From an uncultured Candidatus Saccharibacteria bacterium (lineage in GTDB: Bacteria > Patescibacteriota > Minisyncoccia > GCA-002772825): a DNA stretch of 41,540 nt. Positions 722 through 33,910 of the stretch are shown here, in pieces. Position numbers and translations under genes: made by a program. Below the pieces are notes generated by a model. It was given only the letters and a program-made list of their open reading frames with translations, did no database searches and had not been told where the DNA came from. Numbering within the stretch: position 1 is the stretch's first letter; each line of letters opens with the position of its first letter. The stretch covers positions 1 to 41,540 of the forward strand of contig CAYIGM010000003.1 of NCBI GenBank assembly GCA_964363045.1, written 5' to 3'.

Positions 722-847
722 TAGTATCTTTCTCGTCTCTCGCGAATTGATTGACTATCTAATGGTGGGTGGTAGTCTGAAAGTAGAGAAGTTTGGTCTT
801 TGAAAACTTAAACCATCCGCCTTGGCGGATAGAAGGGAGGTAGAGAG
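722..847 (+). promoter_or_regulatory. conserved leader copy A (promoter-like element + hairpin + SD) upstream of precursor peptide A
   Basis: TTGACT at 751-756, a 16-nt spacer, then TAGTCT at 773-778. Hairpin ATCCGCC/GGCGGAT at 815-830. SD GGGAGG at 835-840, 7 nt before the ATG at 848. Nearly identical to 9079-9204. Confidence 0.6.
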
Positions 848-991
848 ATGGAAACAAGCAAGATATTGGATGTCGTAGATAGGCATGTTGATGCACAAAA
901 TGCCCTAGGCAGTGATGGTCTTATCAGTGCTCATTCTGATGGCCCTGGGCACAACAACCACAGTGGAGACTCTGACCACGAAAACAGCTAG
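848..991 (+). CDS. 47-aa candidate RiPP precursor peptide A (METSKILDVVDRHVDAQNALGSDGLISAHSDGPGHNNHSGDSDHENS)
   Basis: Translated by hand and absent from the ORF track (below its length cut-off). Has a strong SD and sits directly upstream of a radical SAM/SPASM gene. The C-terminal half is rich in His/Asp/Ser/Gly/Asn and has no Cys. Confidence 0.65.
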   Translation: METSKILDVVDRHVDAQNALGSDGLISAHSDGPGHNNHSGDSDHENS

Positions 992-995
992 TCAA

Positions 996-1035
996 ATGAG
1001 AATGACTCTCCTGTAAAAAGGAGAGTCATTCTCAT
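996..1035 (+). promoter_or_regulatory. intercistronic 16-bp perfect stem-loop between precursor A and the rSAM gene
   Basis: ATGAGAATGACTCTCC (996-1011) pairs with GGAGAGTCATTCTCAT (1020-1035), with an 8-nt loop. The 3' arm contains the SD-like AGGAG and the ATG at 1034. Confidence 0.7.
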
Positions 1036-2125
1036 GATAGAAAAAGAGGATAAAATGCATATAATCCCGATTGTGAAAGTTGTATCAGAAACTTGTAATC
1101 TAAGATGTATCTATTGCTACTATCGCGACGGCAATCAAAATAAAATTCAGTTAATGTCATACAATGTGTTAACTGAGTTAATCAAAAAAACAATCCTCGA
1201 GATTAGAAACAGGATTACTTTTATCTGGCATGGCGGTGAGCCTTTACTTGCGGGCCGTTCGTTTTATCAGGACATTTTAGATATACAAAGTAAGTATAAA
1301 GAAGATAACCGCAAAGTGATAAACGGGGTTCAAACCAACGGCATTGTCCTCGACGGACGATGGGCTGAGTTCTTCTTTGAAAATCATTTTCGTGTTGGGG
1401 TAAGCTGCGATGGACCAAAGAAATACAACGATAAGAATCGTTTACTTGCTAACGGATTGAGTTCTTTTGATCGCGTATATAAAGGTATGCGCGATCTAAA
1501 AAGGTTCAATCTGGATCCTCATGTAATCTCAGTAATCACCCGCTCAAGTTTAGAAGGAGCACGCGAGATATACGAGTTTTTCAGGGATAATCAGTTATCA
1601 TTTCATCCTAAGCCATGCTCCGAGAGTGGCCGCAATGGCCTTCCAGCGGAATACTCCATTAATCCTGACGAATATACAGATTTCATGATAGAAATATTTG
1701 ATCTGTGGTGGAAAGATGATAATCCCCGGATCAAGATCAGAAATCTTTTTAATATTCTTATCGGATTGAGGGGAGGCAGGCCTAATTTGTGTGAGAGTAA
1801 TGGAGATTGCCACCTCTTTCTGACAGTTGAGCCTAATGGAGATGTTGGTCCTTGCGATAGTTTCTTAACCGGAAAATATCTTTTTGGCAATATAGAAAAA
1901 CAAAGCTGGAAAGAAATTTTAAATGGACCTGTGTATAAGAAATACCTTGAAGATATTGAGTACAGCAGAAGGTTTTGTAATGGATGCGAATGGCTCTCTG
2001 TCTGCAATGGTGGTTGCCTTAGATACTCGTTCGATGGAAATCAAGACAAATGGATTAAGAATCAGTTTTGTGAGTCAAAAATTCGTCTTTTTAAATACAT
2101 AAAAGAACGGATTTGCGCACGCTAA
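1034..2125 (+). CDS. radical SAM / SPASM-domain peptide-modifying enzyme (anSME-like family)
   Basis: CNLRCIYC CxxxCxxC cluster motif. C-terminal SPASM-type cysteines: CESNGDCHLFLTVEPNGDVGPCDSF ... CNGCEWLSVCNGGC. An alternative start is the ATG at 1055. Confidence 0.85.
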   Translation: MIEKEDKMHIIPIVKVVSETCNLRCIYCYYRDGNQNKIQLMSYNVLTELIKKTILEIRNRITFIWHGGEPLLAGRSFYQDILDIQSKYKEDNRKVINGVQTNGIVLDGRWAEFFFENHFRVGVSCDGPKKYNDKNRLLANGLSSFDRVYKGMRDLKRFNLDPHVISVITRSSLEGAREIYEFFRDNQLSFHPKPCSESGRNGLPAEYSINPDEYTDFMIEIFDLWWKDDNPRIKIRNLFNILIGLRGGRPNLCESNGDCHLFLTVEPNGDVGPCDSFLTGKYLFGNIEKQSWKEILNGPVYKKYLEDIEYSRRFCNGCEWLSVCNGGCLRYSFDGNQDKWIKNQFCESKIRLFKYIKERICAR

Positions 2126-2155
2126 AAGAGGTAGTTAAAAACTACCTCTTTTTTG
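2124..2155. terminator. bidirectional hairpin terminator between convergent genes
   Basis: AAAAGAGGTAGT / ACTACCTCTTTT stem with a 5-nt loop and flanking A/T runs. Confidence 0.7.
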
Positions 2156-3122
2156 TAGATTTCAATATTTTTGCAATCTTATCTATGAAATCTTTATCGA
2201 TCGGTTTTTTAATATTTATATAATTTTCAGTTAAAGAGATAATACTCTGTAGTACATTTTGACGAAAATCTGAAAAAGTATTAATTGGTGTCGGCTCCGT
2301 TTTTTTTAAAATGTTACCTAAATATTTAATGCCAATATATCCTTTTGGAACAAGGCTTTCTATTATGATCTCATTTATTGCAGTTAGCGGACTCATTTTT
2401 TCTTTAAAAAATTTTGTTTCTAAATTTATTTTGTTTTTGATGATAGTTTGCCTGATTAATTTAAGATGCCTCTCGTCTATGAAACAGAGGTGACATATCT
2501 CATGGAATATGACTCCCAGCGCATATTTTGTTAAAGAATGGTTCCGTGTTAAATTATTTATCTCTAAGGTTATTCCGCTTTCTCCTATATTTGCTCCGCC
2601 ACCAAGTTTGTCATTGCAAGGATGAGCTAAGAGGTAAATTGTCACTTTTTTTAAACTTACCTTGCTACCAAAAAAAGATTTAAGTTGGTTAAGTATAATT
2701 TTTGTTCTTTTATTAGTTAACTCATTTTCTATAATTTTTTTGTTAGTGGAGATTATTTTTGAGCCAATCTTCCACCAAATATTGAATTTTTTTTCAAAAA
2801 TATCAAAAGATTTCTCAATGATCTCGATATCTCTCTGCTTAAGAATAGCCCGCGCCTTAATAATAGCTTCTTTTTTATTTTTGCTCGTTATGAAGGACTC
2901 CCCAAGGTAAGTTAATACCCCTGGTTTTATTTGTTTGAATCCATATGCTGTCATTATTTTTTTTATTTGTTTCAGGTTGTTTTTTTCTTTATTAGTTAAG
3001 GCACCTAGAACCTTGAGCCACTCTTCGTTATAGTTTTTTCTGCAAGAGTAATGCCATTCTGAAAGATTTGTTACAAAGAAGAAAAAATTACCTATTCTTG
3101 AGGAAGTTACATTAAATTTCAT
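2142..3122 (-). CDS. hypothetical protein with HExxH (HEICH) motif, possible zinc metallopeptidase
   Basis: 326-aa ORF containing GVIFHEICHLCF. Convergent with the rSAM gene. No family recognised beyond the motif. Confidence 0.45.
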   Translation of the reverse strand: MKFNVTSSRIGNFFFFVTNLSEWHYSCRKNYNEEWLKVLGALTNKEKNNLKQIKKIMTAYGFKQIKPGVLTYLGESFITSKNKKEAIIKARAILKQRDIEIIEKSFDIFEKKFNIWWKIGSKIISTNKKIIENELTNKRTKIILNQLKSFFGSKVSLKKVTIYLLAHPCNDKLGGGANIGESGITLEINNLTRNHSLTKYALGVIFHEICHLCFIDERHLKLIRQTIIKNKINLETKFFKEKMSPLTAINEIIIESLVPKGYIGIKYLGNILKKTEPTPINTFSDFRQNVLQSIISLTENYINIKKPIDKDFIDKIAKILKSTKKR

Positions 3123-3171
3123 AATAGCTTTAGTATATAATATGTAGCTTAAGTATCAAAGGTGGTATTCC

Positions 3172-3334
3172 CTAGTTCAACACCGAAGGCTCCGGCCTCG
3201 ATCTCTATGTGGCCAAGGAATTCATCAAGAAGCACAACGGCCGCTTTTGGGCGGAGAGCCCCGGGGAGGGGAAGGGGTCTACTTTCTTTGTAGAGTTGCC
3301 GAGGGGGAAGGGCGTGTTGCCGTTAATTTATTGA
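3172..3334 (+). pseudogene. histidine-kinase 3'-end fragment, copy 2 (G2 box to stop)
   Basis: Encodes FNTEGSGLDLYVAKEFIKKHNGRFWAESPGEGKGSTFFVELPRGKGVLPLIY*. An in-frame TAG lies immediately upstream (3173-3175) and there is no start codon. Near-identical DNA to 583-721. Confidence 0.85.
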
Positions 3335-3377
3335 TTATGAAATAAGTATATTTAGTTTAGTATTAGCAACAATCATT

Positions 3378-4142
3378 ATGAATATTATCGTCTACTCAAA
3401 AGAAGAGGGCTTTGAGGGTGGTGTTAAAAAACTTGGCGATGAATCTTCTCAATGTGGAAAAACTTGCGAGATTATCGAGATAAAAGAATTACCTGGCTTG
3501 TTAAAAAGGGGATATTTTGAGACTATACAATTTAACATATATTTTCTCTCTAGCGATTATCGCATATCACATTTTATAGATATTATTAAAAAGAAAAACC
3601 AAACTGTGGTAAATGAGGCATTTTTAATTCGCGGCATAATTGTATCAAAATTTGAGTCATTGGAAAGAGTGCGTCGCGGTGGTATACACATACCAAGGCA
3701 TATACAACTAACATACGATGATAATAATTTTTTAGATAAATTAATTATGCCGGTTTTTATAAAGTCCAAGAGTCCGAGAGGGTTAGTTATTCGCGTTAAT
3801 GATAAAAAGTCACTAAATAATAGACTTGAATCATTGCCCGAAAAACAGAATTATTATCTTGAAGAAAATGTAAAGAATAAAGATAATATTGAATTAAAAA
3901 TTTATTATATTAATGGTGATGCATACGCACAAGAAATATGTGGTGCCAATACCGATATTCCAAGTTGGTTTCGTGTCGTATTGGATAAGATATCAAAATG
4001 TACAGAGCTAGATGTGTTTTCCGCAGATTTTTTTATTGATTGGGGAAAAGAGGAGTACTATTGTTTTGATATTAATCACGCATCATCTTTTTATAAATCT
4101 GAGAAAGCAAGAGAAGTATTTATTTCTAAAATTTTAAAATAA
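3378..4142 (+). CDS. ATP-grasp-like protein (putative)
   Basis: 254-aa ORF whose layout resembles RimK-type ATP-grasp proteins (PVFIKSKSPRGLVIRV, YYLEENV, ELKIYYINGD, YCFDINHASSF). The assignment comes from motif resemblance only. Confidence 0.45.
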   Translation: MNIIVYSKEEGFEGGVKKLGDESSQCGKTCEIIEIKELPGLLKRGYFETIQFNIYFLSSDYRISHFIDIIKKKNQTVVNEAFLIRGIIVSKFESLERVRRGGIHIPRHIQLTYDDNNFLDKLIMPVFIKSKSPRGLVIRVNDKKSLNNRLESLPEKQNYYLEENVKNKDNIELKIYYINGDAYAQEICGANTDIPSWFRVVLDKISKCTELDVFSADFFIDWGKEEYYCFDINHASSFYKSEKAREVFISKILK

Positions 4143-4143
4143 T

Positions 4144-4836
4144 ATGGATTGGGAAGAGATGTATATGAGTAAAATTAGACGCGCTGGTGGAATAGATCGA
4201 TATCTTCAAAAAAAAGAAGAAAGATCGGCGGGCGCACTCATTGAGCGTATAAGAAAAAATATTAAACCAGGGTCTCGTATTTTAGAGATTGGAACCGGAA
4301 CAGGCGCAATTGGGGCACTGCTCACCAAATACGGCTTTGATATGACGGCAATTGATAACGATTCAAAAATGATAAAAATAGCTAAAAAAACTTTTTCATT
4401 ATTTAATAAGGTTGATAATGTTTATTTATATAATGCTAAAGATATTATTAAAAAATTTGGATTAAATTCGTTTGCTTGCGTAATATCTCATGGGATGCTG
4501 GAACATTATTCAGATATAGAGATAATTAACTTTTTGAAGATACAGCTTTCTGTAGCTCCTCTTGTGATATTTGTTATACCAACATCCTCTATGTCAAAAA
4601 AATATAGATCTAAAGGGATTGGAGATGAAAGATATTTATCAACACAATACTGGAGAGAATTGATCAGAAAAGATTTTTTTATTCAGTATATTTTTGGATT
4701 TGGATTTAAAGAAACAAATTTCCCGCAGTCTTTTGAAATACTATTAAAAAATAATACCATAGCGAGGTTACTTGCTCCATTATGCGGTATTAATGAATTT
4801 TGGATTATCGCTAAAGGGGATAATTTTACTTTTTGA
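4144..4836 (+). CDS. class I SAM-dependent methyltransferase
   Basis: Motif I ILEIGTGTGAIG followed by an acidic residue in AIDND. Tightly follows the preceding gene (2-nt gap). Confidence 0.75.
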   Translation: MDWEEMYMSKIRRAGGIDRYLQKKEERSAGALIERIRKNIKPGSRILEIGTGTGAIGALLTKYGFDMTAIDNDSKMIKIAKKTFSLFNKVDNVYLYNAKDIIKKFGLNSFACVISHGMLEHYSDIEIINFLKIQLSVAPLVIFVIPTSSMSKKYRSKGIGDERYLSTQYWRELIRKDFFIQYIFGFGFKETNFPQSFEILLKNNTIARLLAPLCGINEFWIIAKGDNFTF

Positions 4837-5239
4837 TGAGATGATAAATTTCCTTAAAATATTCTTTTAAGTTGTTATAACTTAATATCGAAGATACCTC
4901 ATTTATTGGTATCCATTTAATATTATCTTCTTTAAATTCCGGCCTTAAAAGGGTATCATCCTCAGATTGTACCAAAAACATTTTTGTCGAGATATTGCCT
5001 CCATTTGGATGTGTATAATTTATACCCGGCAATTCTCGTAGAATTATTATAGATAGCCCGGTCTCTTCTTTGATCTCTCTCCTCATTGTGGCGGTCGGAT
5101 TTTCACCCTCCTCAATGTGCCCCTTGGGAAAAGACCAATCATTTTGTTTTCCACGATAAAGCAGAGCAATTTTATTTTGATCATCTTTGCTCAAAATAAT
5201 GGCGCCGGCTTTTTGTGTTGATTTAGTTTTGATAATCAT
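4826..5239 (-). CDS. NUDIX hydrolase
   Basis: Nudix box GHIEEGENPTATMRREIKEETGL (GX5EX7REUXEEXGU). Confidence 0.85.
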   Translation of the reverse strand: MIIKTKSTQKAGAIILSKDDQNKIALLYRGKQNDWSFPKGHIEEGENPTATMRREIKEETGLSIIILRELPGINYTHPNGGNISTKMFLVQSEDDTLLRPEFKEDNIKWIPINEVSSILSYNNLKEYFKEIYHLIKK

Positions 5240-5289
5240 TACTATATAATAACTTATTTTAATATGTTTATAAATAAGTATTTTTATTC

Positions 5290-5327
5290 AAAAAAATCCC
5301 CCTTATTCTTGATAAAATAAGGGGGGT
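5290..5327 (-). terminator. rho-independent terminator after the P-loop gene
   Basis: CCCCCTTATT / AATAAGGGGG stem, followed on the minus strand by a T-run. Confidence 0.65.
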
Positions 5328-5352
5328 TAAGAAGTAAATTTAGATTAACGAT

Positions 5353-5889
5353 TCATTTGATTTTTCCGGTCACGGAAAGATACTCAAAAAGAGCTTTTGC
5401 TTCTAAAGCTTGTAATTCCTGTGATGCTATCCCGCAAAAAGACCACTCTATTTGAGAGAGAAGGCAGTGATAATCTTCTTTATCATGCCAATGTCGCGCT
5501 CTTCTATCATCAAGAGTTAGATCTTCGGGGCTACTCCTCTTTAGTCTTAGTTCTTTTGGAATAAATACGCCCGCCAAGGTGCTTTCGCTATCTACTTCTT
5601 TAATGGCTCGCCATTCATCGGGGGTATGAATAGCATCAAGAAGAATGACATTATTTGGGTTTCTGTCGTATTCAATTCTCCTTAGCAGGTGATGCATGAT
5701 TTCATACCCTCCCATCGTTCGATAGAGATTACGATACCAATCAGTCCATGCGGGTTCGTTTTCCCCAATGTCAGACCATTCTTTTAGTAGGGCTCGCTTC
5801 AAGAGCCATTTCCATCCAAATCTTTTTTCCATATATTGGCAGAGATGTGATTTTCCCGAACTATGAAAACCAGCAAATCCTATAATCAT
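5353..5889 (-). CDS. P-loop NTPase / small-molecule or nucleotide kinase-like protein
   Basis: Walker A GFHSSGKS at the N-terminus. 178 aa, similar in size to dephospho-CoA or nucleoside-monophosphate kinases. Confidence 0.5.
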   Translation of the reverse strand: MIIGFAGFHSSGKSHLCQYMEKRFGWKWLLKRALLKEWSDIGENEPAWTDWYRNLYRTMGGYEIMHHLLRRIEYDRNPNNVILLDAIHTPDEWRAIKEVDSESTLAGVFIPKELRLKRSSPEDLTLDDRRARHWHDKEDYHCLLSQIEWSFCGIASQELQALEAKALFEYLSVTGKIK

Positions 5890-5916
5890 TTTTTTCTCCT
5901 CATCTTACGGGTGAGA

Positions 5917-7011
5917 TTATTTTTTTTCTGCCATCGCGGCGGACATACAGTGTATTTCGGGGGTGCAGGAATTTCCCCAGAAGGAAGAAAGATTCTGTAT
6001 CATAAAATCCCCGACGCTGGACACTCCTAACGGCTCTAAAAAACCACAAGTATGAACACGGCCATTCGGAGATATGGAAAGTCCTCGCCGTCCAGCTTTA
6101 CACTTGTGCCATGCGAACGGGAGTTTGATTCTTGGGGCGGTATCAATTTCCTTGAGATAATGACCACTGACAATTCCCTTTGGGTCAGAAAGAAATGAAT
6201 CTAGTTTGATGCGCAGAACATTATAGTCATCAGTTGTCAGCATTTCTTGCGCATTACTTGCTCTTCCTGACGGGATTAACCTCCGGATCATTATTGGTAC
6301 ATTTCGGTCAGAGAAATATCGCACCACATGAGGGATTTCCAACAAATTGCTCTTCATGGCAACGAGGTTCACTCTTACAGGAATTTGAGCTTCTATTAAA
6401 AACTCAATACCCTTAAGAGTTTTTTGAAACATTCCAAGCCCTCGAATAGAATCGTGCCTATCTTCGAGGCCATCGACGCTGACAATCGCAACATTTAGAC
6501 CAATTTCGGAAAGACGCTTTGCGACTGTAGCATCGATAAGTGTTCCGTTTGTACCCAGTGATGCGCGTAAACCAGCTTCTCGGATCTTTAAAATGTAATC
6601 AAAGATTGAAGATATAAGAAGAGGCTCTCCTCCGGTGAAGCGAACTTCTTGAACTCCAGACATACAAAAATCCTCAAGGAGAGAGATTTTTCGCTCATGA
6701 GATAACTCGACAGGTAATGATTCACTAGAGTCATTAAGGCAATGAGTGCAGTGTAGATTGCATGCACGAGAGAGCTCAAAAAAGATTATATCTGGCGCGC
6801 TGAAATTATCAGCAGGGAGAGTGCTTGGTTCACGGATGATTACCTCGGTTGACGTCGTCTTCAATTCAATCCGAAGATTATAAGGAACAAGACCCTCGTT
6901 CTTTATCTGTTGGAATTCTAGTGGAGTAATGTATATCCTCTTTCCGGAGACTGCATTGCTGATTGTCCCGCCAAAAAATTCTTTTCTGAGTAATGATGCT
7001 TGTCTTTTCAT
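5917..7011 (-). CDS. radical SAM enzyme with partial SPASM/twitch C-terminal domain and an N-terminal extension
   Basis: CNLHCTHC cluster motif, GGEPLL, and C-terminal CKAGRRGLSISPNGRVHTC plus CTPEIHC. I moved the start to the ATG at 7011, which is preceded by AGGAGG; the ORF track uses the TTG at 7053. Confidence 0.8.
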   Translation of the reverse strand: MKRQASLLRKEFFGGTISNAVSGKRIYITPLEFQQIKNEGLVPYNLRIELKTTSTEVIIREPSTLPADNFSAPDIIFFELSRACNLHCTHCLNDSSESLPVELSHERKISLLEDFCMSGVQEVRFTGGEPLLISSIFDYILKIREAGLRASLGTNGTLIDATVAKRLSEIGLNVAIVSVDGLEDRHDSIRGLGMFQKTLKGIEFLIEAQIPVRVNLVAMKSNLLEIPHVVRYFSDRNVPIMIRRLIPSGRASNAQEMLTTDDYNVLRIKLDSFLSDPKGIVSGHYLKEIDTAPRIKLPFAWHKCKAGRRGLSISPNGRVHTCGFLEPLGVSSVGDFMIQNLSSFWGNSCTPEIHCMSAAMAEKK

Positions 7012-7046
7012 CTTTGTCCTCCTTAAGATAAGTTTATTTTTTTTAA

Positions 7047-7076
7047 TTGACAAAGTACATTTCTAATATATAGAAT
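7047..7076 (+). promoter_or_regulatory. sigma70-like promoter, TTGACA-18 nt-TAGAAT
   Basis: TTGACA at 7047-7052 and TAGAAT at 7071-7076, 9 nt upstream of the ATG at 7086. Confidence 0.55.
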
Positions 7077-7085
7077 GCATATATT

Positions 7086-7181
7086 ATGATTGAAAGTCAA
7101 CATCAAAAATTACAACAAGCGTTTGAGGCACAAAAAAATTGTTTGAATCTTTGTTATCGTAGTAGCTGGACGGCTTCGTGA
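7086..7181 (+). CDS. 31-aa Cys-containing small ORF (MIESQHQKLQQAFEAQKNCLNLCYRSSWTAS)
   Basis: Translated by hand. Lies directly downstream of a strong promoter and divergent from the rSAM gene. Its stop TGA overlaps the GTG at 7178 of the kinase fragment. Confidence 0.3.
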   Translation: MIESQHQKLQQAFEAQKNCLNLCYRSSWTAS

Positions 7182-7447
7182 AAATTATCTTTTCCCTGCC
7201 GGAGGGGAAGAACACCGCCCTTGTGTATATTAAAGATTCCGGCGCCGGCATGAGTGAAGAGACGGTACATAAAATCTTTGAGAAGTTCAACAGGGCTAAA
7301 GACGCCTCTAGGTTCAACACCGAAGGCTCCGGCCTCGGCCTCTATGTGGCCAAGGAATTCATCAAGAAGCACAACGGCCGCTTTTGGGCGGAGAGCCCCG
7401 GGGAGGGGAAGGGCTCAACCTTCTTCGTGGAATTGCCGCTTAGTTAG
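7167..7447 (+). pseudogene. histidine-kinase 3'-end fragment, copy 3 (G1 box to stop); retains an 89-aa ORF from the GTG at 7178
   Basis: Homologous to 448-721: VKIIFS..KDSGAGMSEETVHKIFEKFNRAKDASRFNTEGSGLGLYVAKEFIKKHNGRFWAESPGEGKGSTFFVELPLS*. TAGTAG stops lie just upstream in frame. HisKA and the N-box are missing. Confidence 0.8.
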
Positions 7448-7462
7448 AGAGGGTAAAATATT

Positions 7463-7606
7463 ATGAGAAATAAATTTGAAGAAGAAGGCTTAAAAGTAGA
7501 GAAAAAAGGACAGTTAGATTTTTTAAAAAATGTCCTTAATAGATATGATAAACTTTATTTTGATGGTGCAGCAGATGGTATTAAATATCTAAAGAACATA
7601 AAATGA
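7463..7606 (+). CDS. 47-aa small ORF (MRNKFEEEGLKVEKKGQLDFLKNVLNRYDKLYFDGAADGIKYLKNIK)
   Basis: Translated by hand. Starts 15 nt after kinase fragment 3 and overlaps the next start as ATGA (7603-7606). Confidence 0.35.
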   Translation: MRNKFEEEGLKVEKKGQLDFLKNVLNRYDKLYFDGAADGIKYLKNIK

Positions 7607-8170
7607 AAAATATTGAATTAAAAGTAGAAGTTGATAATTTTGATGATATTATCGGCGTGCTGAAAAAAAGGCGCTAAATATAATGGCGAATTGTTTCAAA
7701 TAGACACCTATTATCATTGTGACCAAGGAAGACTGAAGTTAAGGGAGATAAATCATTCTGTCTTTGAGCTAATTTTTTATAAGAGGCCAAATAAATTTAG
7801 ATCCAAGATCTCTGAATATCAAATCATAGATATGCCAAAAATAAGTCTCGGAAGGATAAAATTAGAGTTGTCATCTATATATGGTGAAAAGAATATTGTT
7901 CGAAAGAAAAGAAATTTATGGATATATAAGAATACAAGAATACATCTTGATGATGTCTATGGCCTTGGAGGATTCTTAGAAATTGAGACAGTGGTGAAAA
8001 ATATTGATATCAAGCAAGCTAGAAAGGAGCACAGTGAAATTATATCCCTGTTGAATCTCTTGGAATATAAAAAAATAGATAAGTCTTATGGGGATTTGAT
8101 CCCCGTCATTCCTGTTAGGAAAGATATTTCGGTAGATAATACAATGATGAAGTGTCCATTGTTTTCCTAA
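7603..8170 (+). pseudogene. CYTH-domain protein (CyaB/class IV adenylate cyclase-like), interrupted by a frameshift in an A7 run
   Basis: MKNIELKVEVDNFDDIIGVLKK reads into a stop at 7675-7677. Removing one A from 7663-7669 restores ...LKKGAKYNGELFQIDTYYHCDQGRLKLRE..., which continues as ORF 7691-8170. Confidence 0.65.
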
Positions 8171-8201
8171 AAACAAACAATATCTATAAGTAAAAGGTAC
8201 G

Positions 8202-8246
8202 CTCTTCGTGGAGCTACCGAGGGGGTAGTAGATTTGACGGTAGTTT
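8202..8246 (+). repeat. 30-nt stub of the kinase 3' end plus a decayed leader remnant
   Basis: CTCTTCGTGGAGCTACCGAGGGGGTAGTAG matches ..FVELPRG* and the GTAGTAG start of the leader. It is followed by ATTGACGGTAGT, which matches the leader's TTGAC and GGTAGT blocks. Confidence 0.6.
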
Positions 8247-8249
8247 TTA

Positions 8250-8258
8250 TGGTATAAT
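8250..8258 (+). promoter_or_regulatory. extended -10 box TGgTATAAT, 6 nt upstream of the mntA GTG
   Basis: TG at 8250-8251 and TATAAT at 8253-8258. There is no SD before the start at 8265. Confidence 0.5.
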
Positions 8259-8264
8259 ACACCT

Positions 8265-8555
8265 GTGGAAAAGGATATTATTATTGAAAAATTAAATAAA
8301 ACCCTGCCGATTTTAAAGGAAAAATACAATGTGAAAAGCATGGGTGTCTTCGGCTCGTATATAAGAAATGAGGCAAAGGCAGGGAGTGATCTGGATATTT
8401 TAGTCACATTTGAAAAACCGATAGGATTGTTAAAATTTATAGAGCTGGAAAATTATCTTTCGGATATAACAGGAATAAAAGTTGATTTGGTATCTAAAAG
8501 GGCGCTTAAGCCCAGAATCGGAAAACAGATATTAGCGGAAGTTGTTAATATATAA
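8265..8555 (+). CDS. mntA: MntA-type nucleotidyltransferase antitoxin
   Basis: GVFGSYIRNEAKAGSDLDILV (GSxxR..SDxD polymerase-beta NTase motif), 96 aa, directly abutting a DUF86 gene. Confidence 0.85.
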   Translation: MEKDIIIEKLNKTLPILKEKYNVKSMGVFGSYIRNEAKAGSDLDILVTFEKPIGLLKFIELENYLSDITGIKVDLVSKRALKPRIGKQILAEVVNI

Positions 8556-8912
8556 GTGATGAAAAGAGATTATCTGGATTATCTTCAAGATATTATTGAC
8601 TCAATAAATGACATTGAGAGCTTTGTTAGTGGAATGAATTTTAATTCGTTTGAAAAAGATAAAAAGACTTTAAATGCAGTGGTAAGGAGTTTGGAAATAA
8701 TAGGTGAAGCTGTTAAAAAAATACCGGATGAGGTAAAAAATAAATACACTAACATTCCATGGAAAAATATGTCGGGAATGAGGGATAAATTGATCCACGA
8801 ATATTTTGGAATTGATGAAGATATCGTTTGGAGGGTTGCAGTAGAGGAATTGCCACCACTAAAGCCGTTTTTTGAAAAAATTTTAACAGAAACGGAAGGA
8901 GAAAATCTTTAA
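8556..8912 (+). CDS. hepT: HepT (DUF86/HEPN) toxin
   Basis: HEPN RX4H motif in RDKLIHEYFGID, 118 aa. The real start is probably the ATG at 8559. Confidence 0.85.
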   Translation: MMKRDYLDYLQDIIDSINDIESFVSGMNFNSFEKDKKTLNAVVRSLEIIGEAVKKIPDEVKNKYTNIPWKNMSGMRDKLIHEYFGIDEDIVWRVAVEELPPLKPFFEKILTETEGENL

Positions 8913-9081
8913 GAAATTCAATAGGGCTAAAGACGCCTCCAAGTTCAACACCGAAGGCTCCGGTCTCGGCCTCTATGTGGCCAAAGAGTTCATCACTAAA
9001 CACAATGGCCGCCTCTGGGCGGAGTCAGCTGGCGAAGGAAAGGGGAGCACCTTCTTCGTGGAGTTGCCGAGTGGGAAGTAG
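8902..9081 (+). pseudogene. histidine-kinase 3'-end fragment, copy 4 (more diverged)
   Basis: Encodes (E)KIFKKFNRAKDASKFNTEGSGLGLYVAKEFITKHNGRLWAESAGEGKGSTFFVELPSGK*. There is no start codon. The homology begins inside the last codons of hepT, in another frame. Confidence 0.85.
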
Positions 9082-9204
9082 TATCTTTCTTGTCTCTCGC
9101 GAATTGATTGACGATCTAATGGGGGGTGGTAGTCTGAAAGTAGAGAAGTTTGGTCTTTGAAAACTTAAACCATCCGCCTTGGCGGATAGAAGGGAGGTAG
9201 AGAG
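9082..9204 (+). promoter_or_regulatory. conserved leader copy D upstream of precursor peptide D
   Basis: Aligned from the TAG (9079-9204 versus 722-847) I count 3 mismatches in 126 nt, and the last 78 nt are identical. TTGACG at 9108-9113, TAGTCT at 9130-9135, hairpin at 9172-9187, GGGAGG at 9192-9197. Confidence 0.6.
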
Positions 9205-9348
9205 ATGAAGAAAACGAATCTAATGCCATTGATTCTTGATTTGGCGGAAAAAGTCGATGTCGTCTACGACAAGAGTGGTAGACAGGTTTGTTTCGCTGGT
9301 ACAACTCAGGGAACTTATGACGAACCTGACTCCGCTGGTCCCGACTAA
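9205..9348 (+). CDS. 47-aa candidate graspetide precursor D (MKKTNLMPLILDLAEKVDVVYDKSGRQVCFAGTTQGTYDEPDSAGPD)
   Basis: Translated by hand. Has a strong SD and sits immediately upstream of an MvdD/MdnC-like ATP-grasp gene. The C-terminus is rich in Thr/Ser plus Asp/Glu and contains TTQGTYDE. Confidence 0.7.
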   Translation: MKKTNLMPLILDLAEKVDVVYDKSGRQVCFAGTTQGTYDEPDSAGPD

Positions 9349-9353
9349 GCACA

Positions 9354-9397
9354 TTAGTTAGGATGGGCGAGGACACTTCCTCTCCCATCCTAACTAA
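9354..9397 (+). promoter_or_regulatory. intercistronic long stem-loop between precursor D and the ATP-grasp gene
   Basis: TTAGTTAGGATGGG (9354-9367) pairs with CCCATCCTAACTAA (9384-9397), with further inner pairing (one mismatch). There is no T-run. Confidence 0.65.
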
Positions 9398-9427
9398 CAC
9401 TTAACTAATAAAAAGGAGGTGATGGAC

Positions 9428-10357
9428 ATGATTTTAATAATCGGAAATAGTTCAGACAAGGCCAAGACCGTTGTAGATGAAATCAAGAAAATAAGCAAAA
9501 AGAAAGTCATCATCTTTAAAGCCGACAAATGCATAGAGGGAGAAGCTATAGGATTTTCCCTTATTAATGACAAGGCGATGTTATTTGCCGATATAAGTGG
9601 AAAAGATTTTGATTTAAATGAAGCAACATCCGTATGGTACTGGAAGCCGTTGTTGCCCAAGGTCTTGAGAACTATAGAGCCAGCAAGACATCAAATATTC
9701 ATCCATAGGCAGTTTTTAACAATATGGCGTTCAATTGCCAGTTGCCTATCTGACAGGATGTGGATCAATGACTACTACAAACTGTTAGAAGCCGAGAATA
9801 AGCCATACCAAATAAAGCTGGCTTCAGAAATCGGATTTGATATTCCAGATACTCTTATCACTTCTGATCCGAAAAGAGCAATAGATTTTTGGGAATATTG
9901 TGATAAGAAAATGATAATTAAAACTTTAGCTCTCAGTCAGACTGAAGATAGTATGATCTACACTAACAAAGTCACAGAGGAGATAATGCTAAAAATAGAA
10001 AGGCTGAGGTCGTCGCCAGTTATTATGCAGAAGCTAGTCCCCACAAAATACGGACTAAGGATAACTGTAGTGGGTGATGATATTTTCCCCGCTAGAGTTG
10101 AGAGTGACAGTGAAATCGATTGGCGTAGAAGTGAGATTAAACTCAAAAAATATCATCTACCTGGAGAAATTAAAGATAAATGTTTCTGCATGGTAAGGAA
10201 GTTAGGACTAAAGTATGGTTGTATAGATATGATACTCACACCTGATGGTAAATATGTTTTTCTGGAAATAAATCCAAATGGACAGTGGAGTTTTGTCGCA
10301 GAAAGGACGGGTATGCCGATTGGAGAGGCCATCGCACATTTGCTAGTTCACGAGTGA
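9428..10357 (+). CDS. MvdD/MdnC-family ATP-grasp ligase (graspetide / omega-ester peptide synthetase-like)
   Basis: SVWYWKP, ENKPYQIKLA, VIMQKLV, RITVVGDDIF, DWRR and CIDMILTPDGKYVFLEINPNGQW. The start is placed at the ATG 8 nt after AAGGAGG; the ORF track starts at the GTG at 9419. Confidence 0.8.
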   Translation: MILIIGNSSDKAKTVVDEIKKISKKKVIIFKADKCIEGEAIGFSLINDKAMLFADISGKDFDLNEATSVWYWKPLLPKVLRTIEPARHQIFIHRQFLTIWRSIASCLSDRMWINDYYKLLEAENKPYQIKLASEIGFDIPDTLITSDPKRAIDFWEYCDKKMIIKTLALSQTEDSMIYTNKVTEEIMLKIERLRSSPVIMQKLVPTKYGLRITVVGDDIFPARVESDSEIDWRRSEIKLKKYHLPGEIKDKCFCMVRKLGLKYGCIDMILTPDGKYVFLEINPNGQWSFVAERTGMPIGEAIAHLLVHE

Positions 10358-10360
10358 AAA

Positions 10361-10389
10361 GGGAGAAACATTTCGTTTCTCCCTTTTTT
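10361..10389 (+). terminator. rho-independent terminator
   Basis: GGGAGAAAC / GTTTCTCCC stem with a 5-nt loop, followed by TTTTTT. Confidence 0.8.
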
Positions 10390-10434
10390 GATTATTAAGA
10401 TCAAAATGCTAAAATAATACTATGAAATAATACT

Positions 10435-10971
10435 ATGATTAGAAACAAGAAATTACAACAGAAAGTCTTAAAAATGGCATCAATGGATCAAAAAGCAAGA
10501 AAACAGTTCGTAAACGATAGCCAGAATAAGAAATTAGCTAAGCGTATTTATAATTGTGATACTAAAAATATTATAAAAGCAAAAGAAATTATTAAGAAAT
10601 ATGGTTGGCCAACTTTTGATTTAGTCGGGAAAAGAGCTTCCGATGCTTTTTGGCTATTAGTCCAGCACTCTGATAGGGATATAAAGTTTCAAAAGAGGTG
10701 TTTGGCTCTTTTGAGAGAAGTGGTAGAAAATAAGCAGGCTCACTCCAAAAATTTGGCTTTCCTTACTGACAGGATTTTATCAGCTGAAAGTAAAAAGCAA
10801 AAATTTGGTACACAATTTATCTTTAAGAACGGAAGGGCTGTTGTAAAGCCGGTTCAGGACAGAAAGAATCTCAATAAAAGAAGAATCAAATATGGGTTAA
10901 ATACAATAGAGGAAAGAACAAAAGAGATAAATAAAGAGTACTCTAAGATGTTATCGTTGATGAAGAAATAA
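10435..10971 (+). CDS. hypothetical protein (resembles the DUF6624-type helical family)
   Basis: 178-aa ORF with GWPTFDLVGKRASDAFWLLVQHSD and LTDRIL motifs. The family assignment is from memory and is weak. Confidence 0.35.
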   Translation: MIRNKKLQQKVLKMASMDQKARKQFVNDSQNKKLAKRIYNCDTKNIIKAKEIIKKYGWPTFDLVGKRASDAFWLLVQHSDRDIKFQKRCLALLREVVENKQAHSKNLAFLTDRILSAESKKQKFGTQFIFKNGRAVVKPVQDRKNLNKRRIKYGLNTIEERTKEINKEYSKMLSLMKK

Positions 10972-10982
10972 ATAATATTTTG

Positions 10983-11028
10983 CTTAAACACTCAAATCCG
11001 CCGCGGCGGATAGAAAGGAGGTAGAGAG
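10983..11028 (+). promoter_or_regulatory. partial leader copy E (hairpin + SD only)
   Basis: CTTAAAC..ATCCGCCGCGGCGGATAGAAAGGAGGTAGAGAG matches the 3' third of leaders A and D. The stem is kept and the loop differs. Confidence 0.6.
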
Positions 11029-11055
11029 ATGGAAACAAGATGGTTTACTTGCTAG
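11029..11055 (+). pseudogene. 8-aa ORF METRWFTC*, probably the truncated remnant of a precursor-A-like gene
   Basis: The first 11 nt (ATGGAAACAAG) are identical to precursor A, after which the sequence diverges and stops. Confidence 0.45.
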
Positions 11056-11090
11056 TTTACTTATGTTTTTGAGCAGATTAAACTAGATAT

Positions 11091-12116
11091 ATGAATGAAT
11101 CGAGGGTAAAAATCAAATTATCTTATATAACAGGTCTAAGGGATGTTGTCTTAGGTGAGATAAATCAGTATTCAAAGCTTCATACACTCAAAGAAATTAA
11201 TGATTCTGTCTATTTGGATTATGTAGAAGACCTCAATGAGATTAAGAGATTAAGAAGTGTGTCTCGAGCTTACATTGTGTTGCAGGATTTTAAATACAAT
11301 CCACTTTATATTTCCAATCACAAATCAATCGTAGGTAATTTAATAGACATGGTCATCAATGAAGACAAAAATGCGTTTAAAACTTTTAAGATAACATGCG
11401 CCGGATCAAGCTCTCAGGAAGTTCGTAGTATTGCTGAATACATACAGATAACATATGGAGTGATGGAAAAAGAAGAAGCGGACATGAAAATACATATTAT
11501 AAAATCAGATGACGTGTGGGAAATAGGTATTCAGATCACTCATCGGCCACTTTCTGTACGAGGCTACAAAGTTAAAAATATGAGCGGGGCGATGGACCCG
11601 ACTATTGCATATGCTGTAAATTCATTTTGCGCGTTAGAGATGGCAAAAACCTATCTGAATGTTTTTTCCGGTAGCGCTACATTGCTTATTGAGGCAAGTC
11701 AATCTTATCCAGACTTAAAGGATTTAGGTGGTTTTGATAATGATAAAAAACATATTTCTTTAGCGGTGCAAAATATTAAGAAGGCCGGATTGATTAAAAA
11801 GATCAAACTAAAAGAGGCGGATATTTTTGATAAGCCAGATTTTGGGAAGTTTGATGCGGTAACATCTGATTTGCCGTTTGGTATGTCTATATCAAATGAC
11901 GAAGATTTGGAGGAGTTGTATAAAAGTTTTGTAGAATATTGCCAAGATGTATTAAGCCCGGATGGAAGGCTGGTTATTTATACGAATGAGAGCGAACTTC
12001 TGGAAAAGACTATTCAAGAATCGGAGTTTAAGATAGTAAAAACTCTAGAATTAAAATTCATAACATCGGTGGGCGCATATCTTCGCCCAAAGATTTTTGT
12101 GTGTAGGTTAAAATAA
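11091..12116 (+). CDS. THUMP-like domain + class I SAM-dependent methyltransferase (UPF0020 / RlmL-Trm14-like)
   Basis: AMDPTIAYAVNSF, FSGSATLLIE and the catalytic-loop-like SDLPFG, with an N-terminal ~150-aa ferredoxin/THUMP-like region. Confidence 0.55.
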   Translation: MNESRVKIKLSYITGLRDVVLGEINQYSKLHTLKEINDSVYLDYVEDLNEIKRLRSVSRAYIVLQDFKYNPLYISNHKSIVGNLIDMVINEDKNAFKTFKITCAGSSSQEVRSIAEYIQITYGVMEKEEADMKIHIIKSDDVWEIGIQITHRPLSVRGYKVKNMSGAMDPTIAYAVNSFCALEMAKTYLNVFSGSATLLIEASQSYPDLKDLGGFDNDKKHISLAVQNIKKAGLIKKIKLKEADIFDKPDFGKFDAVTSDLPFGMSISNDEDLEELYKSFVEYCQDVLSPDGRLVIYTNESELLEKTIQESEFKIVKTLELKFITSVGAYLRPKIFVCRLK

Positions 12117-12179
12117 GAGCGATGGTTGAATGACAAGAGGCAATATCTTTTATAAAATATATAAAAAGCTTTAATTCAT

Positions 12180-12302
12180 ATGGGTAAGTTCGTTAAAATA
12201 GGCTTCGGAGGATCTTATCGCTTCTCTATGAAAAATTGGAATAAATTAAAAAAAAGGTGGGCATCTATCGGCAAAAAATTTTATGAAAAAGAGCTTTTAT
12301 AA
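12180..12302 (+). CDS. 40-aa basic small ORF (MGKFVKIGFGGSYRFSMKNWNKLKKRWASIGKKFYEKELL)
   Basis: Translated by hand in a 230-nt intergenic gap. No homology recognised. Confidence 0.15.
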   Translation: MGKFVKIGFGGSYRFSMKNWNKLKKRWASIGKKFYEKELL

Positions 12303-12349
12303 AAAGATAATGGAATTTATTAAGAAAAATGATAGAATATTGATAATAT

Positions 12350-12814
12350 ATGCAAAAATTTCAAGCGGCGGAATCCCATATACATGTTATTGCCCGCGGG
12401 TTCCTTGTTCGTGGGAATGAAATTATTTTATGTAAGCCTAAAAATGCAGATTATTTTTTTCTCCCCGGAGGACATGTTGAAGATGGAGAATTTGCAAGAA
12501 CGGCACTTCTAAGAGAGTTAACCGAAGAAATTGGCGATAGCAATTATAAAATCAATTCTTTTATCGGAGTATGTGAAAATATTTTTCCCATAGATGAAAA
12601 TATATCTCAGCATGAAATAAATATTGTATTTGAAGTTGATGTTCCGAAAAATATTAAAATTGATAGCAAAGAATATCATATTGAATTTGTGATTATTAAA
12701 AAAGAAGATTTAAAAAAATATAAAATTTTACCTGCCTCACTTAAGGAAGGTCTTTTGGAGTGGTTTGAAGATATGAAACCTTTTTTAAAGGAAATCGATG
12801 TTTCTAATGAATAA
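12350..12814 (+). CDS. NUDIX hydrolase
   Basis: Nudix box GHVEDGEFARTALLRELTEEIGD. Confidence 0.85.
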   Translation: MQKFQAAESHIHVIARGFLVRGNEIILCKPKNADYFFLPGGHVEDGEFARTALLRELTEEIGDSNYKINSFIGVCENIFPIDENISQHEINIVFEVDVPKNIKIDSKEYHIEFVIIKKEDLKKYKILPASLKEGLLEWFEDMKPFLKEIDVSNE

Positions 12815-12847
12815 TTATATATATAGATATTTAAAATAATATAAATA

Positions 12848-13294
12848 ATGGATATAAATTTAAAAAAGGCATTAAGAATGACGATTCTCAAGCTAGAGGG
12901 TTTGGAATATCTTGTGATAGGATCGATGAGCCTTTATTTGCATGGAATTAATGTGTCACCAAGGGATATAGATATTATAACTACTCCGGAAATATTAGAG
13001 GAGATCATTGTTCGTCTGAAAGAATACCAAACGAAAGAAGTGTATTTCGATAAGACCGAGGGTAGAAATTCATGGAGGACATTTTTTGATATTGAGGGTA
13101 TTGAAGTGGAGGTTCTTGGTAATGTGGATAATCTCGCTTGGTCAAAAAATATTTCAGGTAATAAAGTTGTCGTTGAGTGTGATGGTATATTTATACCTTG
13201 TGTGTCTCTTGAAGCTTCTATTATTGCTTATGAGAAGATGCTCCGTTTGAAAAAGGTTGGATTGATAAAGAATTTCTTAAATAAGCCATGTTGA
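12848..13294 (+). CDS. nucleotidyltransferase-fold protein (putative)
   Basis: LVIGSMSLYLHGINVSPRDIDIITT resembles the GS..DxD minimal NTase motif. Confidence 0.4.
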   Translation: MDINLKKALRMTILKLEGLEYLVIGSMSLYLHGINVSPRDIDIITTPEILEEIIVRLKEYQTKEVYFDKTEGRNSWRTFFDIEGIEVEVLGNVDNLAWSKNISGNKVVVECDGIFIPCVSLEASIIAYEKMLRLKKVGLIKNFLNKPC

Positions 13295-13330
13295 TTTGAC
13301 ACTATCCTCGGTGTGTATTAGTATAAAAAT

Positions 13331-13453
13331 ATGAACAGAAATTATCACAAATTTAATAAGAAATTAAGAATCGCAATGACCTGTGGCTCGTTTGTCGCAT
13401 CTGGCGATGAACAGTTTTTATTCAACCGTGATAGTTTTAATCCTCTTATATAA
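13331..13453 (+). CDS. 40-aa small ORF (MNRNYHKFNKKLRIAMTCGSFVASGDEQFLFNRDSFNPLI)
   Basis: Translated by hand and followed by a strong terminator. No homology recognised. Confidence 0.2.
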   Translation: MNRNYHKFNKKLRIAMTCGSFVASGDEQFLFNRDSFNPLI

Positions 13454-13479
13454 AATAAAATTTATTTTAAAGAATTAGA

Positions 13480-13510
13480 AAAACCCCGGCTGGATGAAAG
13501 CCGGGGTTTT
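13480..13510 (+). terminator. rho-independent terminator
   Basis: AAAACCCCGGC / GCCGGGGTTTT stem with a 9-nt loop. Confidence 0.75.
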
Positions 13511-13557
13511 ATCTAGTAAAAAATAGTTCGTTAACAATCTAAACAGGGAGAAGAAAG

Positions 13558-33768: not shown

Positions 33769-33855
33769 ACCTCCATTATAGCACCAAAAGCTCGGGTGTA
33801 AAATAGCGGGCTTTATTCCCCGAGTGGACCCCTCCCCGAGGGGTCTTGGACAGCT

Positions 33856-33891
33856 AAACGGCTCAACCCACCACGGTGGGTTGAGCCGTTT
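33856..33891 (-). terminator. long GC-rich hairpin downstream of truB
   Basis: AAACGGCTCAACCCACC / GGTGGGTTGAGCCGTTT (about 15-17 bp). Further GC-rich hairpins lie at 33791-33848. Confidence 0.5.
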
Positions 33892-33910
33892 AAATTACTC
33901 GCCAGATTCT

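Follow-up and report, generated by a model that had tools for sequence, protein, structure and literature searches.

The 126-nt segment that separates a sensor histidine kinase gene from a small peptide gene at positions 722 to 847 (+ strand) of a 41.5-kb metagenome contig from Hainich groundwater (hereafter the window, meaning the whole stretch of DNA analysed, from a Patescibacteria or Candidate Phyla Radiation (CPR) genome, as judged by relatives of its kinase and ATP-grasp proteins) is probably the promoter and 5' leader of a portable family, and its near-identity with a second copy in the same window probably reflects recent recombination in a cassette array anchored on the kinase. A sequence-only reading of this DNA had proposed a shared expression module and, as the alternative, very recent gene conversion, and each of these proposals turns out to be partly correct. 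The leader does stand before chemically different peptide systems, in other genomes as well as here, although it is not limited to small-peptide genes. Recent gene conversion or recombination is supported as the cause of the near-identity by the divergence of the leader between genomes and by other mosaic tracts in the array.

The two copies, leader A (722–847) and leader D (9079–9204, + strand), align without gaps and are identical at 123 of 126 positions (97.6%), the only mismatches (A/D) being C/T at 734, T/G at 756 and T/G at 766, which is exactly the number counted in the sequence-only reading. The identical run reaching to the ATG also exists, at a length of 81 nt (84 nt including the ATG) instead of the 78 nt given before. 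Upstream of the leaders, the kinase sequences differ at 29 of 136 positions (586–721 against 8943–9078), in agreement with the earlier estimate of more than 20 in about 135. Downstream, the two peptide open reading frames (ORFs), both of 144 nt, match at 52 of 144 ungapped positions, a background level, and they are indeed unrelated after the start codon. The third copy, at 10983–11028, is likewise real (93% in the repeat search) and keeps the stem ATCCGCC/GGCGGAT with the loop GC in place of TT, but it had been described as restricted to the hairpin and the Shine-Dalgarno (SD) sequence, and in fact it reaches further. This relic leader (10983–11039, + strand) comprises the hairpin, the SD and the first 11 nt (ATGGAAACAAG) of an ORF of the peptide A type, which is then broken (METRWFTC followed by a stop). 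The hairpin pattern is matched three times in the window and not once in 100 shuffles.

All the sequence elements previously listed for the leader were found, i.e., the TTGAC(T/G)-16 nt-TAGTCT element, both GTAGAGA blocks, the hairpin and GGGAGG. In leader A, the -35 hexamer TTGACT (751–756) is followed after a 16-nt spacer by the -10 hexamer TAGTCT (773–778), with a TG at 770–771, and transcription would start about 7 nt past the -10, near 785 (near 9142 in leader D). The part that would be transcribed is 63 nt long, is 100% identical in A and D, and contains the box GGTCTTTGAAAA (795–806, about +10 to +21 from the presumed start), the hairpin ATCCGCC-TT-GGCGGAT (815–830, a perfect palindrome of 16 nt) and a strong SD, GGGAGG (835–840), 7 nt before the ATG. 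The corresponding elements of leader D are the -35 TTGACG (9108–9113), the -10 (9130–9135), the box (9152–9163), the hairpin (9172–9187) and the SD (9192–9197). The layout is that of a sigma-70-type promoter, with hexamers spaced by 16 nt here and with TTGACA, 16–17 nt and TAnnnT at the homologous site in the contigs L007, L011, L012, L014, L015 and L001 of other genomes.

Other features considered for the leader were rejected. The 13-codon mini-ORF M(V/G)GGSLKVEKFGL exists but is not conserved in homologous leaders, those of L011 and L015 having no ATG at the corresponding position; it lacks an SD, overlaps the -10 and has one of the three A/D differences as a non-synonymous change (V/G), so that we do not regard it as a leader peptide. 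The hairpin at 815–830 is not an intrinsic terminator of the kinase gene, since on the + strand its stem is followed by AGAAGGGAGG, with no T-run; it is terminator-like on the - strand only. Motifs of the sigma-54 or LytTR type, judged by eye, did not fit.

About ten members of the family to which the leader belongs were available, and the relatives were reached via proteins and a kinase 20-mer. Homologous leaders head graspetide precursor genes (L011, L012 and L014) and a radical-SAM precursor gene (L015), and also a 233-amino-acid gene (L001/L010) and a DUF397 gene (L007). Evidence of relationship comes from an nhmmer profile seeded solely by the foreign graspetide leaders of L011, L012 and L014 and searched against 210 kb of DNA. 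It retrieved the radical-SAM leader of L015 over the whole profile length (E=1.1e-4), as well as leaders D (7.8e-4) and A (9e-4) of the window, and its sole other match below E=0.01 was a phage contig, L017 (5.4e-3). A covariance model of the three window copies, the search proposed in the sequence-only reading, found L011, L012 and L001/L010, and a six-member profile added the leader of L007 before the DUF397 gene. The cassettes behind the leaders of L011, L012, L014 and L015 are orthologous to those of the window, with about 82–85% identity in the ATP-grasp gene of L011 and L012, about 69% over the cassette DNA of L014 and 85% in the maturase gene of the radical-SAM cassette of L015. The aligned leader parts of L011, L012, L014 and L015 are a GATTGACAAAAT -35 region, a 16–17-nt spacer, a TAnnnT -10, (A/G)TAGAR near the presumed start, the box GGTCTTTGAAAA 42–47 nt past the -35, usually a stem-loop, and a GGAGGT SD. 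The distance of 42–47 nt between the -35 and the box is kept in seven of eight members.

L007, L011 and L012 have the module in common over a stretch that starts with an upstream terminator hairpin, takes in the -35 and reaches the box, with a mean column identity of 69% over the full length of the three-way alignment, while the downstream genes differ. All three also carry a duplicated 5' fragment of a methyltransferase gene, to which the module is attached at an identical point. Homology thus covers the whole 100–130 nt, including the upstream terminator, which indicates common descent and not a shared operator of 15–20 nt. In remoter homologues, the box is absent (the ATP-grasp cassettes at 63% identity in L021 and L022, and the radical-SAM cassettes at 50–56% in L016, L023 and L024), and the leader family is therefore confined to a narrow clade. 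Judged on its sequence, the leader appears to be a portable promoter-leader of common descent and not a peptide-specific element. Every such cassette carries its own copy of the module, and homology between cassettes therefore ends at the start codon.

Some further observations concern the surroundings of these leaders. In L007, the methyltransferase promoter and first 17 codons are duplicated (1533–1726 and 3855–4043) and flank an inserted cassette made of the terminator-promoter module, the DUF397 gene and an ABC-F ATPase, an arrangement that mirrors the kinase 3' fragments of the window. The methyltransferase 5' fragment also abuts the graspetide cassettes of L011 (1–70) and L012 (about 830–860). 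A scan of viral contigs for the -35 and the box gave four stretches, three of which are chance occurrences in coding DNA. On phage contig L017, positions 4137–4211 (- strand) show a leader-like layout (TTGACAAAAT, a -10, AGGTCTTTGAAAAA and an SD; nhmmer E of about 0.003–0.005) before a DUF3574 gene, and the contig also encodes a terminase, a sliding clamp and a sigma-like factor. This may be a coincidence, the matches of the scan being near the chance number, or L017 may be a phage of these bacteria.

The 3' end of the kinase gene is present four times in the window, and not only in the two copies noted before, ending at 721, 3310, 7447 and 9078, with left ends that differ. K1 (11–721, + strand), the anchor of the array, is the 3' 711 nt of an intact sensor histidine kinase of the seven-transmembrane (7TM) type with Pfam HisKA and HATPase_c domains; the window begins within this gene, which is full-length in the assembly L029, and the upstream side is visible only as 814 nt of kinase in L029. 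K2 (3172–3310, 139 nt), K3 (7160–7447, about 290 nt) and K4 (8905–9081, about 175 nt, with the kinase end at 9078) are 3' fragments, all on the + strand. Leaders A and D follow K1 and K4, respectively, whereas the cassettes after K2 and K3 have no leader.

Within the window, the leader is better conserved than the coding DNA beside it, as had been claimed (97.6% without gaps against 79% for K1/K4). The claim does not extend to comparisons between genomes, in which the leader is 64–67% identical, including 14–32 gap columns, whereas the adjoining genes are 77–85% identical with few gaps. Since the leader is between genomes no better kept than coding DNA, selection cannot account for the 97.6% identity of A and D. 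Had the two leaders diverged together with the kinase fragments, they should be at most about 65–80% identical and rich in indels. Instead, K1/K4 identity jumps from about 60% to 97.6% at 716–722. Other parts of the array are mosaic in the same way: K1 and K3 share tracts of 104 and 36 identical nt in a background of about 75–80%, and K1 and K2 have long identical runs in common. The differences between K1 and K4 fall in synonymous codons in 21 of 29 cases, and K4 carries the ESAGEG allele type otherwise seen in the L001/L008 lineage; by these signs, the kinase fragments are not decayed local duplicates.

Comparison with co-occurring strains gave a similar picture. The assembly L029 differs from the window by 56 mismatches, all of them within 175–382 (989–1196 of L029), in frame and about 25% diverged, and L030 differs by 24 mismatches within 313–382 and an isolated one at 619, being otherwise identical. 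Such clustered, in-frame patches of about 25% divergence in otherwise identical strain DNA indicate repeated homologous import and gene conversion. Together with the other mosaic tracts in the array, they make a recent gene-conversion or crossover tract the parsimonious cause of the A/D identity. From these patterns, we infer that the 97.6% identity is owed to recent recombination or gene conversion and not to selection; the right limit of the tract would be the end of homology at the ATG. The patch in L029, which lies in the sensor and dimerization/histidine-phosphotransfer region of the kinase, has its nearest allele in L007 (83%), which points to foreign kinase alleles having been imported recently.

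The array itself (722–13390, unstranded) contains five cassettes in 12.7 kb. In L007, DNA 86% identical to window positions 13391–13552 follows about 90 nt past the kinase stop codon, and therefore 722–13390 represents extra DNA relative to L007; housekeeping genes lie downstream, from about 13391. Cassette 1 consists of leader A, a 47-amino-acid His/Asp-rich precursor, a radical SAM/SPASM maturase and an HExxH protein on the opposite strand, ending with the latter gene (2142–3122). K2 is followed by cassette 2 (3311–7159), with an ATP-grasp-like protein, a methyltransferase, a NUDIX protein and a second radical SAM enzyme. Cassette 3, after K3, carries a 47-amino-acid ORF, a CYTH protein and an MNT/HepT toxin-antitoxin pair. 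Cassette 4, after K4, carries leader D, a graspetide precursor, an MvdC/D-like ATP-grasp enzyme and a DUF6624 protein, and the relic leader precedes cassette 5 (methyltransferase, NUDIX and nucleotidyltransferase). The left ends of the kinase fragments lie at varied kinase positions and share no motif, and the right ends are always at the stop codon. No Pfam domain of a recombinase, integrase or transposase was found in any ORF of at least 90 amino acids in the 41.5 kb. An array of kinase fragments with other cargo is also present in a sister lineage (L001/L010/L008), where, in L001, fragments of 237 and about 730 nt part an ATP-grasp/PIG-L cassette from a glycosyltransferase/transfer RNA (tRNA) synthetase cassette.

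These features suggest that cassettes would have accumulated right after the kinase stop codon in a recombination-prone array, each acquisition leaving a 5'-truncated copy of the kinase 3' end. Two routes can be envisaged: a circle bearing a kinase fragment could integrate by a single crossover (Campbell-type), or homologous recombination at one side could be combined with an illegitimate join at the far end.

Several details of the array deserve mention in their own right. In K2, the G2 box GLGL has become GLDL by a Gly to Asp change (3199–3201), and the frame continues past the normal stop; K2 is the sole copy with pseudogene-like decay. The HepT toxin ORF (8556–8912) runs into K4 (8905), from which it draws its last codons and its stop codon. 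Three ORFs of 47 codons (848–991, 7463–7606 and 9205–9348), mutually dissimilar, each directly follow a kinase copy, which may be a coincidence; no family matches the middle one (MRNKFEEEGLKVEKKG...), the exact protein of which occurs on two contigs of the collection. The L001 contig (1–10612) has identical ends of 141 nt, equal to the assembler k, and the contig L010 from the Joint Genome Institute (JGI) crosses this junction at 100% identity. L001 could be a circular element or a tandem unit of 10.47 kb, but a graph cycle arising from near-identical kinase copies would explain it equally well. Its cargo includes a truncated kinase, a kinase fragment, ATP-grasp, PIG-L, NUDIX and GT2 proteins, and a class-I tRNA synthetase of 851 amino acids.

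A number of points weigh against the interpretation of the segment as a portable promoter-leader spread by recombination. The -10 hexamer fits the consensus at only three of six positions, and for this reason a consensus promoter scan did not list the promoter. The three A/D differences are confined to the part upstream of the presumed transcription start, which fits a constraint on the transcribed half, although with P of only about 0.125. The box near +10 and a stem-loop located at the same site in three lineages hint at a function beyond a plain promoter. Whole-collection scans with the hairpin/SD pattern TCCGCCN{2,8}GGCGGATAGAARGGAGG gave no match in metagenome contigs and none in genome contigs, which is why only about ten members are available. 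While the join of K1, leader A and peptide A is reproduced by independent assemblies, the join of leader D to peptide D is seen in no independent assembly. In addition, the contig L032 (1–552; 552 nt, coverage 1) has a K4-type fragment and a D-type leader (T/G/G at the diagnostic sites) joined to peptide A, with four further mismatches, every one to C or G. It could be a recombinant or the junction of an excised circle or tandem produced by leader-leader recombination, or equally a chimera formed through the 84-nt identical block.

A further suggestion of the sequence-only reading, possible control by the adjacent two-component system, appears unlikely. It would make the leader the target of the response regulator of the neighbouring kinase, and the shared sequence the signature of a two-component regulon. 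The position of the leader right after the kinase stop codon agrees with this, as do the 7TM kinase (44% identical) lying 1.7 kb downstream of the graspetide cassette of L014 and the clustering of leader cassettes, in several genomes, in a neighbourhood of methyltransferase, FeeM-like and kinase genes. However, no response regulator was found in the 41.5 kb of the window, which starts inside the kinase gene, and none beside the kinase of L007, the upstream neighbours of which are a FeeM/LuxI-like synthase and a methyltransferase. The leader also occurs without an adjoining kinase (L011, L012 and L015), the kinase copies K2 and K3 lack it, and its homology extends, as described above, well beyond an operator. 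The synthase gene of L007 (4703–5449), immediately upstream of the kinase, is of the FeeM/autoinducer-synthase-like N-acyl amino acid type, and this signal synthase and the orphan 7TM kinase could form a signalling pair.

It is similarly improbable that the leader acts in cis like a riboswitch or attenuator, as a structured regulatory RNA or by binding a protein, with purifying selection on nearly all its bases accounting for its better conservation than the kinase DNA. The box at a fixed distance from the -35 and the complete identity of the 63 transcribed nt would be expected in that case, and stems directly 5' of the SD occupy the same place in the window (ATCCGCC/GGCGGAT), L001 (ATTCGGGC/GCCCGGAT) and L015 (ATCCAG/CTGGGT) while their inner pairs differ. 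Yet the stem is shifted or absent in other leaders (L012, L013 and L017 have no hairpin), and the presence of a hairpin across leaders is not above that in shuffles (Fisher P=0.2). RNAalifold on six leaders gave no consensus pair, and the single-sequence folds of the leaders are unremarkable (z-scores of -0.1 to -1.3). In Rfam, the window has no match at the gathering threshold, and at E up to 10 the region 700–1000 gave only chance small nucleolar and small nuclear RNA matches (U6atac). The indel-rich divergence of the leader between genomes, exceeding that of the neighbouring genes, is also contrary to purifying selection on nearly every base.

We consider it quite improbable that the leader or its hairpin is an attachment or cleavage site of a recombinase (integron attC-like, or IS200/IS605- or repetitive extragenic palindromic (REP)-like), at which cassettes would be inserted, the repeats being copies of that site. 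All cassettes do start at the kinase stop codon, mostly after GTAG, the leader contains a perfect palindrome, and TCCGCC...GGCGGA hairpins recur in related genomes; moreover, a Y1 (IS200-like) transposase adjoins the graspetide cassette of L012, and L032 resembles an excised-circle junction running from K4 through leader D to peptide A. Against this, the window contains no recombinase gene of any of the kinds searched for, two of the four kinase copies are not followed by a leader, and the repeats have no fixed extent, as the kinase fragments measure 139, 290 and 175 nt and their left junctions vary. Elsewhere, the hairpin differs in sequence or is absent and the leader is unduplicated, and L032, at a coverage of 1, can be a chimera. 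Lastly, an assembly artefact, in which strain variants were collapsed or chimerically joined, is very improbable: although the window is a metagenome contig, an identical block of 84 nt could mislead a short-k assembler and L032 gives an alternative join, the independent per-sample assemblies L029, L030 and L031 repeat the order kinase, leader A, peptide A and maturase with a 100% identical leader, three bases distinguish A from D, the unique left junctions of the truncated kinase fragments are beyond what a graph mis-join can create, and an analogous array was assembled independently in two projects (L001, European Nucleotide Archive; L010, JGI).

Both leaders of the window head gene clusters for modified peptides, i.e., peptides made by the ribosome and modified after translation (RiPPs), of different chemistry. 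Precursor A (848–991, + strand; 47 amino acids) has a His/Asp-rich core. L015 contains its orthologue, L016, L023 and L024 contain distantly related proteins, and its exact protein is present on four further contigs. The core of the family, H(S/T)DGPxxN(N/D)xxG(D/N)xxHEN(S/W), is found in these four genomes together with an anSME/DynA/DarE-like radical SAM enzyme and an HExxH protein; in the 50%-identical relatives, the order is maturase, then precursor. The maturase (1034–2125, + strand) matches Pfam Radical_SAM (3e-15) and SPASM (1.2e-11), its nearest NCBIfam models, all below their cut-offs, are anSME, DynA, DarE and GrrM, and it stands closest to the anSME/DynA/DarE/cyclophane-forming group. 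As in radical SAM/SPASM RiPP clusters, the enzyme lies beside a conserved small precursor, and our guess would be that peptide A is cross-linked at His or aromatic residues (cyclophane-type). The 326-amino-acid HExxH (HEICH) protein (2142–3122, - strand), syntenic beside the maturase in L015, L016, L023 and L024, has a faint metallopeptidase match as its sole Pfam signal and may be a leader peptidase.

Precursor D (9205–9348, + strand; 47 amino acids, MPLILDL...TTQGTYDEPDSAGPD) carries a PLILDL leader motif and a Thr/Asp/Glu-rich core, with orthologues in L011, L012, L021 and L022. It is followed on the + strand by an MvdC/MvdD-like ATP-grasp maturase (9428–10357; NCBIfam MvdC 196 bits and SAV_5884 191 bits, both below cut-offs, with weak Pfam RimK and ATPgraspMvdD matches) and by a DUF6624 protein (10435–10971), a trio that is syntenic in many Patescibacteria. 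An ATP-grasp ligase lies beside a precursor whose leader has the form Phhx(1,2)h, as in graspetide clusters, with cross-links that are predicted only. This leader motif was described by Makarova et al. (2022; PMC8939145).

In both cassettes, a long hairpin separates the precursor from the maturase: one of 17 perfect base pairs at 996–1035 (+ strand; fold z = -8.3) in cassette A, with a counterpart of other sequence in L015 (about 535–575), and one of 20 bp at 9354–9397 (+ strand; z = -7.1) in cassette D, with a counterpart of other sequence in L011 (about 381–425). These hairpins (17–21 bp, z of -7 to -8.3) are far stronger than any structure in the leader, and their position is kept in orthologues. 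The hairpin at 996–1035 may act as an attenuator or a stabiliser. The promoter-leader module would drive high, co-ordinated transcription and translation of the precursor, and the long hairpin behind it would lower read-through into the maturase gene, the box at +10 being a candidate site for a shared regulator. In cassette A, the SD of the longer maturase frame and its ATG at 1034 also lie within the 3' arm of the hairpin.

In lantibiotic operons such as nisA-nisB, the precursor has a strong promoter, and a stem-loop separates it from the modification genes. The cassettes of the window appear, by analogy, to be organized like such bacteriocin or RiPP operons, with a small precursor having its own SD and promoter, followed by a very stable hairpin before the maturase, in the orthologues too. 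They differ in that two chemically unrelated systems share one homologous promoter-leader, with no dedicated regulator gene found in either cassette.

The leader can also be compared with putative mobile promoters, for which the threshold was 80% identity across a minimum of 50 nt (Nijveen, Matus-Garcia and van Passel, 2012; PMC3575422). As in those cases, similar upstream regions stand before non-homologous genes within and between genomes, outside Rfam families, and the A/D pair exceeds the criterion with 123 of 126 identical positions before ORFs matching at 52 of 144. The leaders of other genomes likewise stand before other genes, but at 64–67% including gaps they remain under the 80% limit. 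In contrast to mobile promoters, the module described here includes the full 5' untranslated region up to the start codon and heads accessory cassettes, chiefly modified-peptide clusters, in an array in uncultured Patescibacteria, and the mosaic tracts point to homologous recombination between copies of the cassettes as the likely means of its spread.

Similarly, the array recalls integrative elements that lie in tandem and displace the 3' ends of genes, such as the tycheposons of Prochlorococcus (bioRxiv 10.1101/2020.12.28.424599) and the islands that target tRNA or transfer-messenger RNA genes. In both, a hypervariable island lies by a conserved gene, partial copies of the 3' end part the cargo and the intact gene stands at one edge. 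Here, in contrast, the target is a protein-coding kinase gene with fragments of variable length (139, 290 and 175 nt; 237 and 730 nt in L001), and an integrase or transposase is missing from the window, where homologous-recombination mosaics are found instead. Laboratory transformation and conjugation offer a further parallel in homology-facilitated illegitimate recombination and Campbell-type insertion-duplication (PMC3240628). As in our case, one end of the acquired DNA is anchored in homology (here that of the leader or of the kinase 3' end) and the other is joined at an arbitrary point, with an insertion and a truncated duplicate of the anchor as the outcome. In the window, such processes may have built a multi-cassette array in nature.

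Graspetide clusters have been reported in CPR bacteria (Makarova et al., 2022; PMC8939145), and cassette D, with its MvdC/D-like ATP-grasp enzyme and PLILDL precursor in a CPR genome, agrees with that description. Unlike here, that study reports no promoters or leaders (the word "promoter" occurs 0 times), and no link between CPR loci and kinases was found in the passages searched.

At its core, a promoter and leader duplicated by recombination is an ordinary finding; less ordinary are a module common to chemically unrelated cassettes in several genomes and its place in an integrase-free array in a CPR bacterium. If the adaptor is truly portable, a covariance-model search would provide a class-independent finder of modified-peptide and other accessory cassettes in Patescibacteria, in which precursor genes are tiny, unannotated and hard to predict. 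The array also illustrates how ultra-small symbionts poor in mobile elements may gain and shuffle genes through recombination anchored on the ends of conserved genes, and direct population evidence comes from the co-occurring groundwater strains with imported patches of about 25% divergence in otherwise identical DNA. A caution follows as well, because non-coding DNA that is better kept than the genes flanking it can be a recombination mosaic and not a sign of function.

More speculatively, and only as a tentative proposal, an integrase-free system of plug-and-play cassettes may operate in this clade, with two kinds of homology handle through which natural transformation and RecA would swap, stack and excise cassettes between strains. 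One handle may be the portable terminator-promoter-leader adaptor with its operator-like +10 box, and the other the duplicated ends of conserved backbone genes (in the window, the 3' end of the kinase, and in L007, L011 and L012, the 5' end of the methyltransferase). The cargo would comprise modified-peptide clusters, toxin-antitoxin pairs and a tRNA synthetase, and captured cassettes would at once be expressed and co-regulated.

Apart from the leader hairpin, the intergenic DNA of several of these genomes repeatedly contains perfect palindromes of related sequence with stems of 15–19 bp (TAAACGGCTCAACC... as well as others built around a TCCGCC...GGCGGA core). They are located at 33855–33892 in the window, at 1533–1575 and 3849–3895 in L007 and at 2030–2075 in L011, and may form a family of terminator-like or REP-like elements.

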